A DNA stretch of 63,501 nucleotides, filler included, from Reclinomonas americana ATCC 50394 (lineage: Eukaryota): the NCBI GenBank assembly GCA_048213135.1. It is 24 parts of 24 records of this genome, joined end to end, with 100 filler letters (N's around TTAATTAATTAA, not from the genome) between each part and the next. Parts side by side here need not be neighbours in the genome. Positions count along the whole stretch, not along the records: positions 45,001 to 49,346 come from AFZH01024591.1; 23 more parts are not named here. One strand, given 5' to 3'. Positions 44,901-49,346 of this stretch are shown here, one piece after another. How positions within the stretch are numbered: the stretch's first letter is position 1; each line of letters begins with the position of its first letter. A program made the translations under genes and the position numbers. Under the pieces are notes generated by a model, which made no database searches, was not told the origin of the DNA, and saw only the letters and a program-made list of their open reading frames with translations.

Positions 44901-45089
44901 NNNNNNNNNNNNNNNNNNNNNNNNNNNNNNNNNNNNNNNNNNNNTTAATTAATTAANNNNNNNNNNNNNNNNNNNNNNNNNNNNNNNNNNNNNNNNNNNN
45001 GTTCGTCGTAGACGGCGGCGCTCCGCTTCCCCCGGGAACCGTCGTGTTCCAGTTGGGACCGGGCGGCACCTGGGATATTCTGGGCATCT

Positions 45090-45467
45090 ATGGTTGACTC
45101 CGACATGCCTGAATCCTCGACTGTCGAAGCGCTGGCACTTCGAGCCCAAAGTGGTGGACAGCCTGAGAATGACGCGTTGATCAATGCGTTCCTCGACGCC
45201 GTCGTTGTGGTCCCGAGCGGAAGCGACCCGGGCAAGGGTTCGTTCGAACCCGTGATGGTCGACATCGATGGCACCTCTCACATGCTCGTCTGTGATTCGC
45301 TCACCGCGGCTCGCGAGGCCACGGATCTCGCCCCCTTCGCAGTGTCTATGCGGGGCATCGATGTGGTTCGCGGACTGACACCCGGGCATGCGATTCTTCT
45401 GCGGACGCCGACGACCGGCTTCGCCATCGACGAGGCCTTGCTGAACGAGATCCGAGCGCGTTCATGA
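45090..45467 (+). CDS. SseB-like protein (putative immunity/accessory)
   Basis: AFLDAVVVVP...P.MV...MLVCDSL...MRGIDVVRGL.PG..ILL is the SseB N-terminal domain pattern. Confidence 0.6.
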   Translation: MVDSDMPESSTVEALALRAQSGGQPENDALINAFLDAVVVVPSGSDPGKGSFEPVMVDIDGTSHMLVCDSLTAAREATDLAPFAVSMRGIDVVRGLTPGHAILLRTPTTGFAIDEALLNEIRARS

Positions 45468-45745
45468 CGCCGAACCCGGCGTACCCGGGTGCATGCGATA
45501 TCTGCTCGGGCTACTGGGCGACGTACGCGCCGGACGCGCGTGCGGTGACGATCGGCGAGAGCGAAGAGTTCATGGCCGAAGTGCGGCGCTGCCGCTACTG
45601 CGGCACCTACTGGGAGGTCGGGGCCTTCAGTTATCCGCAGGTGATCTCTCGGGAGCATGCGCGACGCGAGCTTCCCGACCTTGACGCGCTCGAGCAGGCC
45701 CTCGGCATCGATTTCCCTGAACCACCGCAAGAGTCCTCAACCTGA
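45464..45745 (+). CDS. Small hypothetical protein with CxxC...CxxC zinc ribbon
   Basis: CDIC...RCRYCGTYWE...ISREHAR. ATGA coupling with the upstream gene. Confidence 0.75.
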   Translation: MTPNPAYPGACDICSGYWATYAPDARAVTIGESEEFMAEVRRCRYCGTYWEVGAFSYPQVISREHARRELPDLDALEQALGIDFPEPPQESST

Positions 45746-45866
45746 CGGGTTGCGGCTCGTTGCAGGAGAAGACGGCGATGACGATCAGGGAGGTGGCAGG
45801 GGCGCGAATCGGTCTCGATACTGGGTGGCCGTTCTCGGTGACCAACGATGCGATCGGCCTCAGCTC

Positions 45867-46286
45867 ATGATCCAGAGCCCGCAGACGATCGAGGCGAGCC
45901 GAGACGGCGTCGTCCACCAGGCGACGATCGCCTGGCAGCTCACACCGGACTATCGCTGGCTGGTGTCCGTCGAGTCCTCGGCATTCGAAGCGTTTGAGGC
46001 GCGGGCGAACGACGCGTTCGAGGCGCTCTGTATCGTGCGCGAGCACCTCGAACCTCAGGGATGGCGGCTCGGCGTCGTCGGTGCGCAGATCGACGTCTGG
46101 CCCAGCGGCATGGCTCGTGATCAGGGCGGCGGAAAAAAGGCCTACCGGATGACTGCCGACGGTGTTCAGGGCTTGGTGGATACGTTCGCGCCGACGGACC
46201 CGGCGACGGTCGCGACGGTCGCTGCGCAGAAGACCGAGGCTGATCGGTTGTTCGAAGAGATGCGGCACCGCGCTCGAGACGCGTGA
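45867..46286 (+). CDS. Putative immunity protein, family A copy 1
   Basis: DAFEALC.VRE.LEP.GW..GV.GAQIDVWPSGMARDQGGG.KAY...VDTFAP. Paralog of 46811 and 47236; start codon uncertain. Confidence 0.7.
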   Translation: MIQSPQTIEASRDGVVHQATIAWQLTPDYRWLVSVESSAFEAFEARANDAFEALCIVREHLEPQGWRLGVVGAQIDVWPSGMARDQGGGKKAYRMTADGVQGLVDTFAPTDPATVATVAAQKTEADRLFEEMRHRARDA

Positions 46287-46336
46287 AAAGCGGCCAGATA
46301 CCCGGAGAGTAACTTCCCTCACCCGCAGGAGTGACG

Positions 46337-46678
46337 ATGGCACACGAGGTTCTGACCGTGGGTGACGTGCTCGCCCTGGTCAGCGAACTACGCCCCGCTG
46401 CGAATCAGTTGGTGAGGAAGTCGGATGTCGAACTCGGCTTCGTCATCTACGACGCGTTCAGTGTCCGCGGCTTGTACGACGACTACGGCAGCGGCAACTG
46501 GGGATTCAGTATTGCTCTGGGCGGAGACGCCGTCGTGTCCACTGTTCTCGGGCGGCGCCTGGGTATTCGCGGCACTCCGGACGAAGTGCGATCGGCTCTC
46601 AAGGCCGTCGACGAGTACGCGCGTCTGAGGCTCGGGCCCGAGTATCTCGCCGCGCACGAGGCTGCATACGGCAGCTGA
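46337..46678 (+). CDS. Putative immunity protein, family B copy 1
   Basis: AGGAG RBS; FVIYDAF...DEYARLRLG.EYLAA. Paralog of 48047. Confidence 0.75.
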   Translation: MAHEVLTVGDVLALVSELRPAANQLVRKSDVELGFVIYDAFSVRGLYDDYGSGNWGFSIALGGDAVVSTVLGRRLGIRGTPDEVRSALKAVDEYARLRLGPEYLAAHEAAYGS

Positions 46679-46810
46679 TGCCATCGCGCTGATGAATAGC
46701 CGGCTCGTGACGGAATCCGTAAAGTGGCGGGAGTTGAGCGAACGGGATACGGACAAGGAAGAGCCGCACATGACGACACCCGTCATCGACCTCGCAGATA
46801 TCCTGAAAGC

Positions 46811-47236: not shown

Positions 47237-47673
47237 TGAAGAACCTGACCTACGACGGCATCATCGCTGCTGCGGGTGATGTCTCTGTTCCCGCGACTAT
47301 CGCCGTGGTGCAGGACTTCGATAGCCCGAACGGCAGGGAGTACACGGTCTCGGTCGAGTTCGACCAGCGCGTGTTCACCGGCGTGGGCGCGGACGCGTTC
47401 TGGGCCTTCGAGCGAGCGCGTGAACAGTATGAGCCTCTGGGGTGGAGCGTGGCGGTTCAAGGCGCCTCCGTGCATTGCTTTCCCAGCGGAATGCAGGGCG
47501 AGGCCGGCGCCCTCGTGGTGTACGGGCACCCGGAATCGCTTGAAGATGCGCAACCGGAGCCGGTCGTGACCTTCGCGGCGGCGGAACTCGACCAGATCGT
47601 GACCTTCGCCGAGCAGATGGCAGCGCAACGAGAACGCATCGAGTCCTGGCGTCGATCATCGAACCCCGCATGA
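47236..47673 (+). CDS. Putative immunity protein, family A copy 3 (divergent)
   Basis: DAFWAFERAREQYEPLGWSVAVQGA..CFPSGM...Y...VVTFA. TGATG coupling. Confidence 0.72.
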   Translation: MKNLTYDGIIAAAGDVSVPATIAVVQDFDSPNGREYTVSVEFDQRVFTGVGADAFWAFERAREQYEPLGWSVAVQGASVHCFPSGMQGEAGALVVYGHPESLEDAQPEPVVTFAAAELDQIVTFAEQMAAQRERIESWRRSSNPA

Positions 47674-47993
47674 GCCTGAGCGAAGCACGCACGATGATGG
47701 ATGCCACGCTCACTGCCGCGATCATCGCGTACGTCGGATACGGCTCGCGGCGTACGCCGGGAGCCGATGACGCGGCGGTCCTCGCGATGGACGTGCCCGA
47801 CGCCGAAGCGCTCCTCGGTGAGGTGAAACAGATCGTGACGGCCAGCGACGCCCTGAACATCCGCAGAGAGGCCTTCGGCGATCAGGACAAGTCGACTCTC
47901 TTCGGCATCGAATTCGAGAAGATCCGCCCCGGCCTGAGCGCTGAGGCTCTTCGCGCTCTCTCCTGGCGGTGGTCCTACCATGCGTTCTTCTGA
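47670..47993 (+). CDS. Putative immunity protein, family C copy 1
   Basis: LTAAII...P...RPGLSAEALRALSWRWSY. ATGA coupling. Confidence 0.7.
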   Translation: MSLSEARTMMDATLTAAIIAYVGYGSRRTPGADDAAVLAMDVPDAEALLGEVKQIVTASDALNIRREAFGDQDKSTLFGIEFEKIRPGLSAEALRALSWRWSYHAFF

Positions 47994-48046
47994 TCGGGCG
48001 GCGGCAGCGTGCAGGACCAGACTCGGCTTCGACGGAGGAGCGACAG

Positions 48047-48403
48047 ATGCCGCATGACGACATGACCGTTGACGATGTGCTCGACCTGGTTCTCGCGCAT
48101 CTCCCCGCTGCGACGAAGGCGTACAGGAGGTCGGATGTCGAACTGACCTTCGTCCTGTACGACGCCTTCGCCGTGCGCGGCTCGTACGACGACTACGGCA
48201 GCGGTAGCTGGGGATTCGGCATCCTCTTGGGCGGAGACGCGTCGGTGTCCGAGATCCTCGGGCAGCGGCTGTCGATCCGCGGCACTCGGGACCAGGTTCG
48301 GGAAGCGCTGAAGGCCATCGACGAGTACGTGCGGTTGCGGCTGGGGAGCGAGTATCTCGCGGCCTACGAGGCCGCGTACGGGGCGAGAGGAACCCAGCCG
48401 TGA
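48047..48403 (+). CDS. Putative immunity protein, family B copy 2
   Basis: GGAGGAG RBS; clearly alignable over its full length with 46337-46678. Confidence 0.78.
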   Translation: MPHDDMTVDDVLDLVLAHLPAATKAYRRSDVELTFVLYDAFAVRGSYDDYGSGSWGFGILLGGDASVSEILGQRLSIRGTRDQVREALKAIDEYVRLRLGSEYLAAYEAAYGARGTQP

Positions 48404-48684
48404 CGGACCAGAACACAGATCTGAGCGAGGCCATCGTGGTCCACCTCACGAACTATCCGGGGAAGAACGAGGCCGCGTTCGAGGCACGGTACGGCTCATC
48501 CGGGATGCGCGAGCAGGTACGTGCGATGCTGGACGAGACGATCAGCACCCGGATCGACTGGGCGGGCATGTCCCTCAGCGAGATCGGTGACGAGCTCGAA
48601 CGCGTGATGCGTGAGAGGCATCCGGAGCTGTCGGATGCCGCGATCACCGGGCTCCGCAACTACTACACGTATCTGGTCAAATGA
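48400..48684 (+). CDS. Putative immunity protein, family C copy 2 (divergent)
   Basis: LSEAIV...P...IDW...RHPELSDAAITGLRNYYTY. GTGA coupling. Confidence 0.7.
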   Translation: MTDQNTDLSEAIVVHLTNYPGKNEAAFEARYGSSGMREQVRAMLDETISTRIDWAGMSLSEIGDELERVMRERHPELSDAAITGLRNYYTYLVK

Positions 48685-48697
48685 GGGGAATCGACCG

Positions 48698-49346
48698 ATG
48701 AGCGCGATCAAGCCGATCATGCGCGAGGTGAGGCAGGCGGTCCTCTCGGGCATGGCCCACTCGAAGGACAAGCTGCACCAGCTGACCGACAACATGCTCA
48801 ACCATGTCGATGATGTCGCGAAGCGGGTGCGCGGCCAGGACAAGTTCGAGGGCAGGGATGCGCCGTGGGCGCTGCGCGGCGGCTGGGACCGGAACTCGTC
48901 GACCCAGCCGGGCGACTACACCCCCGGCGGGCGGTACGACCACGACCACAAGAGCGACCGTCCCGACCCCGAGGACTACCTGAGCAAGGACTACATCGAC
49001 CGGCACCTCGCGCGGTTCGACAACGGTGCGAGCCGCATCTACGTCTCGGACTCCCTCAACAACTACGGGCCCGCGCAAGCCGACCACGACGCTTTCGTCT
49101 TCCCGACCGAAGACCTCGACCGGGTGCTCAACGAGGCGGGGCATGACACCGACAAGCTCGAGGATCTGCTCGGGTTCGACCGGGGATCCCTGCGCGACGA
49201 CGCCGGCAACCCGCTCCAGATCGAGATCCGCCACTTCTCGCCCGATGAGCTCAACGGGCTCACCGTTCCGTCGGGGCGGGAGAACGGCGCGAACGACAAC
49301 TGGCTTCCTGGCGGCTATCTTCCGACGGGTGTGCCCGAGGGCGTGA
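48698..49346 (+). CDS. Putative polymorphic toxin: short helical N-terminal module plus toxin-like C-terminal domain (3' truncated)
   Basis: GAGGGG RBS; MSAIKPIMREVRQAVLSGMAHSKDKLHQLTDNMLNHVDDVAKRVRGQDKFE, then RPDPEDYL..YI..HL..F..G...FVFP...LE.LLG...PSGRENGAN..WLPGG...GVPE. I recall this motif string from C-termini of LXG/Rhs-type toxins (unverified). Confidence 0.65.

Follow-up and report, generated by a model that had tools for sequence, protein, structure and literature searches.

A small-gene array on a Microbacterium contig, very probably part of a type VII-linked polymorphic toxin-immunity island

Introduction

What is an array of small, diverged, interleaved paralogs doing beside a toxin-like gene? 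This question is raised by positions 45001–49346 of the window, the whole 63,501-nucleotide stretch of DNA analyzed here, which derives from the assembly of Reclinomonas americana ATCC 50394 (GCA_048213135.1). A first-pass annotation made from the sequence had described ten co-directional genes ending in a toxin-like gene (g10) and had proposed an uncharacterised polymorphic toxin system with accumulated orphan immunity genes, belonging to a Microbacterium-like organism. We find that this contig is very probably the proximal portion of a polymorphic toxin-immunity island of a Microbacterium species, linked to a type VII secretion system (T7SS); secretion, toxicity, and protection are what we infer for it. 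The proposed polymorphic-toxin locus with its orphans is supported by evidence concerning the toxin, the linkage of immunity genes to toxin domains, and the variability of the locus among strains.

The window consists of 24 short contigs (GC 45–67%) joined by spacers of N44, 12 nt, and N44, and the interval 45001–49346 is exactly one whole contig of 4346 bp with 65% GC. Because it is a separate, complete contig, its neighbors in the window are uninformative as context. The chromosome of a Microbacterium genome (G013:C1; G and L numbers denote genomes and loci) covers the entire contig with 44 mismatches and 1 gap (98.97% nucleotide identity), which bears out the proposed host.

Results

An array of small paralogs between two toxin genes

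Genes were called with a simple home-made caller based on GC content at third codon positions (GC3). The ten genes all lie on the plus strand in the order first described, and all ten reading frames are intact both in the window and in G013, where the gene order is the same. An eleventh, truncated gene precedes them:

45002..45097, +: 3′ end of a toxin gene (31 codons and stop) truncated by the contig start, of the P0025 / L002:10001-10636 type
45090..45467, +: g1, 125 amino acids (aa), directly after the P0025-type toxin; candidate chaperone or immunity protein
45464..45745, +: g2, 93 aa, zinc-ribbon-like with two CxxC pairs; follows g1 in the same cassette
45867..46286, +: A1, 139 aa, TriX-family immunity protein, orphan
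46331..46678, +: B1, 113–115 aa, immunity-type, unnamed family B, orphan
46811..47236, +: A2, 141 aa, TriX-family immunity protein, orphan
47236..47673, +: A3, 145 aa, diverged TriX-family paralog, orphan
47670..47993, +: C1, 107 aa, member of unnamed family C, associated with ADP-ribosyl cyclase (ARC) toxins, orphan
48047..48403, +: B2, 118 aa, second family B member, orphan
48400..48684, +: C2, 94 aa, second family C member, orphan
48698..49346 (contig end), +: g10, toxin gene, first 216 of 247 codons, the length being taken from relatives
48698..48853, +: g10 residues 1 to ~52, conserved putative N-terminal targeting domain, followed by a linker and, from ~residue 80, an SPN-like domain

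Stop and start codons overlap in four pairs (g1/g2, A2/A3, A3/C1, and B2/C2), and a gap of 13 nt separates C2 from g10, which fits operon-like coupling and agrees with the translational coupling first noted. Three small paralog families had been claimed. Two are clear from BLASTP: A1 and A2 share 61% identity (E 4e-63), A3 shares 31–34% identity with A1 and A2 (E 5e-9 and 6e-11), and B1 and B2 share 69% identity (E 1e-54). The third is joined through intermediates only, since C1 and C2 give no pairwise BLASTP match even at E 10; L007:11383-11682 bridges them (E 1e-8 to C1 and 3e-13 to C2), and they align end to end within a 12-member family alignment. A merger of A, C1, and C2 by single-linkage clustering was rejected as homology, being due to an open reading frame (ORF) in Microbacterium sp. 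PMB16 (L002:13851-14504) in which a family A gene and a C2-like gene share one 217-codon frame, an apparent fusion.

In Pfam, NCBIfam, PADLOC, and PHROGs, all ten proteins fell short of the curated thresholds. The sub-threshold matches were SseB (PF07179) for g1 (E 0.097), PDC-S26 in PADLOC (E 0.041), and phrog_5806 (E 0.0027, with no stretch). Because these scans gave sub-threshold matches only, prophage, defense-system, and metabolic readings were dropped; prophage or metabolic families had been named at first pass as one outcome that would overturn the toxin proposal.

The last gene shares its N-terminal domain with unrelated toxins

A search with g10 returned 36 relatives, 24 of them alike over most of their length (232–248 aa); as complete relatives are longer than g10, the contig end must remove ~31 residues. 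The other 12 share only the first ~50 residues, at 53–78% identity, and continue into TNT (4), GH-E (2), Scabin-like (1), or Ntox15 (1) domains or into C-termini with no Pfam domain (4). When 1.84 billion representative proteins were searched with a profile of the N-terminal domain, only 75 clusters were found, in nearly all of which the domain begins at residue 1 of a protein of ≤247 aa. A Pfam scan covering 57 of the 75 clusters detected, in 17, a domain from one of seven families found in polymorphic toxins: GH-E (5), Ntox15 (4), Scabin-like (2), TNT (2), Endonuclea_NS_2 (2), colicin-DNase/WHH (1), and a weak ADP-ribosyl cyclase match (1). A further 38 have no Pfam match, and 2 carry non-toxin domains. 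One ~50-aa N-terminal domain is thus found on alternative, unrelated C-terminal toxin domains, which is the pattern that defines polymorphic toxins; criteria for such systems were reportedly set out by Zhang et al. in 2012. The last gene, originally called toxin-like, therefore shares its N-terminal domain with proteins bearing at least seven different Pfam toxin domains. Two proteins, P0233 and P0247, join the toxin N-terminal domain to a cytochrome P450 fragment and to a Crp-type helix-turn-helix domain (HTH_Crp_2), and these are probably not toxins but chimeric gene calls or products of recombination.

The C-terminal domain of g10 was approached through an AF2 model of a full-length relative, in which it is predicted with a local confidence score (pLDDT) of ~90. 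Compared with known structures, the toxin-domain model best matches the NAD+ glycohydrolase SPN (3pnt_A; VIA Z 11.1, root-mean-square deviation [rmsd] 4.5 Å over 179 aligned residues; runner-up Z 4.7), and the first three Foldseek ranks are all SPN (probability 1.0, E 1.8e-3). Three residues, H103, Y115, and E214, are invariant in the family alignment and are candidate active-site residues on that basis. The model suggests that this domain is NAD+ glycohydrolase-like, with the SPN fold and a corresponding predicted activity. A gene of family F6 directly follows g10-type toxins in six of six places, so the window sequence would be expected to continue with an F6 gene, the presumed inhibitor of g10-type toxins. 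Apart from the cut at the contig end, g10 is intact in the window, G013, and G216. Its ortholog in Microbacterium sp. SA39 (L001:9999-10760) has a 1-nt deletion after ~codon 74 that shifts the frame, and this copy is either a pseudogene or an assembly error.

The truncated gene at the left end, missing from the first-pass gene list, appears to encode a second toxin of this kind. The first 94 bases of the contig, read in frame 2, end in the same C-terminus as P0025, and G013 contains a complete 211-aa toxin of this type behind a WXG100_2 partner gene. P0025-type toxins group with g10 over the C-terminal domain in BLAST clustering, by which the left-end toxin is a distant member of the g10 (SPN-like) toxin-domain family. 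Its gene is overlapped at the end by g1, which directly follows P0025-type toxins in L002, G013, and the window and is itself followed by g2 in each. Hence g1 and g2, listed at first as members of the array, are the cognate downstream pair of the left-end toxin and not outsiders. The N-terminal 29 residues of g1 are conserved in L002, favoring the long start. Its initial label of SseB-like is weakly based, the Pfam match scoring 13.3 bits beneath a cut-off of 21, and a proposed relationship to the SseB-like F11 family was rejected as not significant (hhalign E 0.15). No Pfam or NCBIfam family matched g2, of which orphan copies lie in L001 (two), L007, and G216.

Relatives place the toxins beside type VII secretion genes

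An N-terminal alignment scan, taking one genome per species, identified 14 loci, all in Microbacterium or Microbacteriaceae. In these loci, as in G013 and G216, the toxins are preceded by genes for an FHA-FtsK/SpoIIIE ATPase of ~1505 aa and a WXG100 protein. The recurring plan runs from RDD and FHA proteins to the ATPase, then to the WXG100 gene and to genes of 74 aa and 565 aa, the latter SBP_bac_5-like, and finally to the cassettes, with the EssC-like ATPase and WXG100 gene beside the toxins in L002, L003, L012–L014, and G013/G216. In the relatives, each cassette comprises a 233–238-aa PF25547 WXG100_2 gene (the partner), a toxin of 190–247 aa whose start overlaps the stop of the partner gene, and then one or two small genes. 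In G013 the stretch matching the contig directly follows a type VII secretion cluster, and the order is the 565-aa gene, a class I partner, the 211-aa toxin, g1, g2, A1, B1, A2, A3, C1, B2, C2, and g10 (247 aa), followed by F6, F16, a class III partner with F17, a class I partner with a toxin and F23, and a class II partner with Ntox15 and Tdi1. Ntox15 toxins are followed by a Tdi1 or SUKH gene.

Upstream of the EssC-like ATPase, locus L015 (G001:C1:1895000-1914500) encodes a MoxR AAA protein, DUF58, and a transglutaminase, then RDD, PP2C, FHA, and Ser/Thr kinase proteins. This gene set suggests that the secretion system is controlled by phosphorylation.

A PF25547 WXG100_2 gene directly precedes 19 of the 23 toxins that have the class I N-terminal domain, the exceptions being L006, L012:4840, a 63-aa stub in L013, and g10 in the window. 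Three partner sequence classes, distinguished by class-specific C-terminal helices, match three classes of toxin N-terminus. Of 301 Microbacterium species genomes sampled, 43 contain the partner gene, mostly as 2–4 copies, which marks the system as accessory.

We predicted the complex of the SA39 partner (233 aa) with residues 1–55 of g10 from the window. The best of 3 controls scored 0.01, the three runs 0.83, 0.82, and 0.83, a mark that 51 of 78 solved complexes reached, as did 2 of 108 mismatched pairs. The runs share at least 86% of their contacts, and the g10 chain has a pLDDT of at least 78. The N-terminal domain matched nothing in the PDB, and the partner matched PDB entries only at E 0.08 or weaker. 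Since neither chain has a sequence-detectable solved relative, the score is unlikely to reflect memory of a like complex. The predictions therefore support binding of the g10 N-terminal domain by a WXG100_2 partner.

Families A, B, and C recur downstream of specific toxin domains

Family A, which could not be named at first pass, is nameable. Its profile matches the immunity protein TriX in the PDB (E 2.4e-9, positions 5–134 of 138), and an AF2 model of A2 (pLDDT 88) superimposes on TriX in Foldseek with a TM-score of 0.81–0.87 and an rmsd of 2.2–2.3 Å (E ~1e-9). Family A thus belongs to the TriX immunity family by both sequence profile and fold. Its 241 homologs are all unnamed and almost all from Microbacterium. 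In six of six cases an A gene is the second gene after a toxin of the Scabin-like cluster, with an SseB-like gene between them. Pfam confirmed the Scabin-like domain on both cluster toxins scanned (L001 and L008), and it recognized SseB on the genes downstream of the Scabin-like-cluster toxins of L008 and L004, although not on that of L001. The second gene after the Scabin-like toxin of L001 is an A3 copy of 88.7% identity. No ADP-ribosyltransferase toxin gene was found on the contig or in the G013 island, and A1 is counted as an orphan for this reason.

Family C tracks a different domain. Upstream of C genes lie toxins that match the ARC toxin Tac1 (9ouf; E 8e-40) and another entry, named "ADP-ribosylcyclase toxin" (E 5e-36). 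The ARC toxin domain was found in 13 of 301 Microbacterium genomes searched, and a family C ORF lies directly downstream of it in all 13 loci (E 3e-37 to 1e-4), including those in which the domain ends a protein of 500–1200 aa; two of the 13 places are also counted as L002 and L012. Close copies show the same arrangement: a C1 copy (83% identical) directly follows the ARC toxin L002:12313-13008, and C2-like genes directly follow ARC toxins in L010 and L012. The 63 C homologs, from Microbacterium, Agrococcus, Terracoccus, and Leifsonia, are unnamed, and none has a Pfam domain. Assignment of family C to Imm74 was rejected: C1 and C2 gave no Imm74 (PF15603) match at E up to 0.1, and a PF15603 search of 5 C-bearing genomes matched none of their C genes. 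In the PDB the family C profile found only eL28 at E 0.72, and in the Protein Atlas B2 and C2 fell only into unnamed clusters.

Family B directly follows a ~200-aa toxin, F36, in L006 and L007. The F36 toxin domain was found in 7 of 301 Microbacterium genomes, with a B-profile match downstream in six, L021 lacking one. Of these matches, two are weak (E 8e-4 and 8e-5) and two consist of paired fragments. Altogether, 8 of 9 places with the F36 domain have a family B gene downstream, the two weak matches being counted and the ninth place a miss. Neither the family B nor the F36 toxin profile matched the PDB. A, B, and C thus each recur downstream of one specific toxin domain, which is what tabulating upstream neighbors, the check proposed with the immunity-gene interpretation, was expected to reveal.

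F36 and ARC domains also end large Microbacterium proteins of 500–1200 aa (L019–L021, L029, L030, L032, and L034–L036), again with a B- or C-like gene downstream except in L021. At least one further architecture for delivering these toxins therefore exists in the genus.

Possible cassette exchange and selection on orphan genes

Of the small genes on the contig, g1 and g2 alone adjoin their toxin, and the G013 island offers no cognate toxin for any of the other seven. Gene content differs among related genomes, four of which have different first cassettes, in line with the variability anticipated at first pass. In G216 the order is partner, F36 toxin, B1 (95.7% identical to that of the window), A2, A3, g2, B2, C2, and g10. 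SA39 (L001) has a Scabin-like toxin followed by A3, g2, A2, g2, C1, B2, C2, and the frameshifted g10, while PMB16 (L002) has a P0025-type cassette and then an ARC cassette. As B1 lies beside an F36 toxin in G216 and lacks one in the window and G013, it is cognate there and orphan here.

Class I partner copies within one genome are 92–100% identical, and toxin 5′ ends are ~80% identical at the DNA level. This similarity provides homology by which cassettes could be exchanged.

The ratio of nonsynonymous to synonymous substitution rates (dN/dS) is 0.14–0.29 for A2, A3, B1, B2, C1, and C2 against orthologous copies, with B2 at 0.26–0.29 against G216 and SA39, which shows that the orphans are under purifying selection and not decaying. 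For g10 against G216 the ratio is 0.03. Comparisons were omitted where the best match was a paralog or coverage was below 0.9, namely A1, C1, and g1 against G216, A1, B1, and g1 against SA39, and A2, A3, C1, and g10 against PMB16.

Alternative readings

Several observations weigh against a working, type VII-linked toxin-immunity island. The contig encodes no T7SS machinery, and the link to secretion comes from relatives, chiefly the 98.97%-identical genome. No partner lies directly upstream of g10 in the window, G013, G216, or SA39 (L001), so g10 would need a partner encoded elsewhere in the island, and the 1-nt deletion in the SA39 copy indicates that the g10 cassette can decay. In the monomer model the N-terminal ~48 residues, a helix, have low confidence. 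g10 matched no Pfam family at E up to 0.1, and its N-terminal domain showed no LXG domain (PF04740, which we take to be the LXG accession); given this and a length of only ~50 residues, we do not class g10 as an LXG protein. The g10 family profile had no sequence match to any solved chain in the PDB, and the likeness to SPN is one of fold only, at 12% identity. The F6 profile likewise matched no solved chain in the PDB, including that of the SPN inhibitor IFS. Two genes (SseB-like and A) come after Scabin-like toxins, so adjacency picks no single immunity gene; similarly, g1 and g2 are each candidate neutralizers of the left-end toxin. For B and C, an immunity role is proposed from gene position, no fold or family having been matched. 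Finally, the GC3 caller erred at least once, placing a spurious 1434-aa ORF on the minus strand of L024, where the stretch was read instead from tblastn matches.

The most probable alternative is that the array is functionless evolutionary debris of past swaps and that g10, without a partner of its own, is no longer exported. We consider this unlikely. The missing partner in four genomes, the frameshift in SA39, and the gene fragments (a g1 piece and A3 pieces) that lie between intact genes in L001 and L002 are what such a history would leave, whereas ten intact frames in both the window and G013 and the low dN/dS ratios of the orphans and g10 are not, and the several near-identical class I partner copies in each island could serve g10 in trans.

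Less probable still is that A, B, C, g1, and g2 assist export, as chaperones or adaptors in the manner of Lap/Tap, EsaE, and DUF4176 proteins, and are not immunity proteins. Small proteins of T7SS loci can be targeting factors or chaperones (PMC13444075; PMC12356396), some toxins here are followed by two genes, and the SseB-like F11 genes and g1 could be of this kind. Yet A is a homolog of TriX, a solved immunity protein that occludes an active site (PMC11606950), B and C track the toxin domain even on 500–1200-aa proteins with other N-termini, as fits immunity rather than export, and the upstream WXG100_2 gene already supplies a conserved export partner. Least probable of all is an intracellular toxin-antitoxin or anti-phage abortive-infection module, such as one with an NAD+-degrading effector: although NADase and nuclease domains serve in defense too and the toxins have no signal peptide-like N-terminus, PADLOC returned nothing beyond its single weak match, the toxins stand in tandem behind T7SS ATPase and WXG100 genes, each with a WXG100-like partner at its side, their domains are found also on large proteins of polymorphic-toxin type, and orphan immunity arrays are typical of interbacterial systems.

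Other features of the islands and of the window

Behind class III partners lie F17 genes of 210–213 aa, which have no Pfam domain and are directly followed by the next partner gene. Lacking a Pfam domain and space for an immunity gene, they may be something other than toxins. Their positions are as follows:

L001:14608-15249, L004:8572-9204, L005:8565-9203, L009:8585-9220, L014:12377-13009: F17 genes

Elsewhere in the window, a high-GC contig (37408–40818) is 98% identical to the same Microbacterium chromosome, G013; both contigs matching G013 indicates that one Microbacterium strain supplies several contigs of the assembly. Lower-GC neighbors of the contig studied here look like a different organism; 40919–42988 is a long WD40-repeat ORF, and 43089–44900 adjoins. 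The assembly is therefore mixed.

Discussion

Taken as a toxin-immunity island, the locus suggests the following mechanism. The ~50-residue N-terminal helical domain of each toxin would dock onto its WXG100_2 partner, and the two together would form a composite helical export signal for the adjoining FHA-containing EssC-like ATPase. The C-terminal domain would then act inside a rival cell; g10 and the left-end toxin, given the predicted SPN fold, may kill by depleting NAD+. A1, B1, A2, A3, C1, B2, and C2 would be orphan immunity genes against toxins of neighboring strains, the absent cognate toxins being Scabin/TreX-like ADP-ribosyltransferases for A, a toxin of unsolved fold for B, and ADP-ribosyl cyclase NADases for C. 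Such orphans would be retained since they neutralize toxins that neighbors deliver. Recombination at partner and toxin-5′ sequences may swap the first cassette and strand older immunity genes downstream.

A more speculative proposal, for which we claim only a modest chance of being right, is that this is a split T7SS design, in which the bulky export module, and perhaps the delivery module too, has been separated as a conserved 233-aa gene while the toxin keeps a ~50-residue docking helix. The partner might even insert into the target membrane to carry its cargo across; it has a central hairpin that is marginally hydrophobic, with a peak Kyte-Doolittle mean over 19 residues of 1.67 at residues 105–123 (L001:5462-6160). 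Were the split design correct, these toxins would be the smallest modular T7SS effectors known, and the conserved partner would be a built-in recombination handle that hot-swaps cassettes and leaves mixed orphan arrays behind.

As to novelty, T7SS modular toxins with helical partners, downstream immunity genes, and strings of spare immunity genes are known in Bacillota, where antibacterial T7SS toxins are well studied, and, in the literature searched, in mycobacteria since 2026, when experiments first demonstrated them there (PMC13444075). The term "uncharacterised" therefore stands for this toxin family and falls for the principle, and the route of secretion can be named as type VII. This Microbacterium toxin family was not described in the literature searched, the coverage of which was partial, the supplementary toxin table of PMC13444075 lying outside it. 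What sets the system apart is the inverted size relation, a ~50-residue docking domain against one 233-aa partner, together with the unnamed immunity families B, C, g1, g2, and F6 and an SPN-fold toxin family that Pfam does not recognize. The antibacterial T7SS theme would thereby extend, in unusually compact form, to Microbacterium, a common genus of soil, plants, and food, and the TriX family to Gram-positive bacteria. Toxins of ~200 aa with a separate, conserved WXG100-like partner should be convenient for studying T7SS cargo recognition. Candidate functions can be offered for C against ARC toxins (non-Imm74), for B against the F36 domain, and for g1/g2 and F6 against SPN-fold toxins. B1, cognate in G216 and orphan in G013 and the window, forms a natural before-and-after pair for the origin of orphan arrays. 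If the orphans protect, they may help to predict which strains can coexist.

Among known systems, the closest in layout are the LXG-Lap toxins of T7SSb in Bacillota and the mycobacterial ESX-4 toxin EatA with TapA1/TapA2 (PMC13444075; PMC12356396). The likeness includes a helical N-terminal targeting region with a variable C-terminal toxin, one or more helical partner genes directly upstream, a composite signal (predicted for Microbacterium), a downstream immunity gene, location at or close to EssC/EccC ATPase and WXG100 genes, and the same toxin domains (TNT, HNH/ENDO nucleases, and ARC). LXG domains are ~200 residues long. The Microbacterium system differs in having one, larger partner (233 aa, PF25547) and no LXG Pfam match, and its toxins have a targeting part of ~50 residues in a protein of at most 247 aa. 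Mycobacterial T7SS toxins measure 400–1000 residues (PMC13444075). The Microbacterium apparatus resembles kinase/phosphatase/FHA-rich subtypes rather than T7SSb or ESX. By gene content it is like the T7SSd of Actinomycetota in its FHA-bearing ATPase, WXG100 protein, and Ser/Thr kinase, and in having substrates beside extra WXG100-related genes, there proposed to be co-secretion partners (PMC11217815). PP2C, extra FHA, and RDD proteins present in G001 set it apart from T7SSd, which that article describes for Olsenella and Bifidobacterium, Microbacterium being absent from its main text.

Individual toxin-immunity pairs also have counterparts. Tac1-Tci1 of the Streptococcus parasanguinis T7SSb is the counterpart for family C, whose linked toxins match Tac1 as given above and are likewise T7SS-linked, with predicted depletion of NAD(P)+. 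Tac1 acts by depleting NAD(P)+ and is countered by an Imm74-family immunity protein (PMC12356396). Here, the downstream gene is family C and not Imm74, and the window has two C genes without an ARC toxin; non-Imm74 immunity genes have been noted beside type VI secretion system (T6SS) ARC toxins (PMC12356396). For family A the counterpart is TreX-TriX of Xenorhabdus bovienii (PDB 8s2m and 9gco), TriX being matched over its full length and the toxins linked to A being Scabin-like ADP-ribosyltransferases. TriX obstructs the active site of TreX, an ADP-ribosyltransferase delivered by a Xenorhabdus T6SS Rhs protein and related to the Scabin-like group (PMC11606950). The differences are an identity of 23%, a Gram-positive host, T7SS-type delivery instead of a T6SS Rhs protein, an extra SseB-like gene between toxin and A, and the orphan state of all three A copies in the window; the target is FtsZ for TreX and DNA for Scabin. 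SPN-IFS of Streptococcus pyogenes (PDB 3pnt) shares with g10 the predicted fold of the toxin domain and a dedicated downstream gene, here F6, from which it differs in the low identity of the toxin domains and in the lack of a sequence match between F6 and IFS. SPN enters host cells with streptolysin O, unlike the delivery proposed for g10.

The array itself has parallels as well. Strings of non-identical esaG/tsaI immunity genes are said to occur at the T7SS locus of Staphylococcus aureus, and loci for contact-dependent growth inhibition (CDI) and Rhs toxins carry orphan cassettes. All consist of diverged tandem immunity paralogs without toxins, variable among strains and shaped by homologous recombination, which for Microbacterium is the proposed mechanism. 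The Microbacterium array differs from these parallels in interleaving at least three unrelated immunity families and in that its recombination handle would be the partner gene together with the toxin 5′ end.

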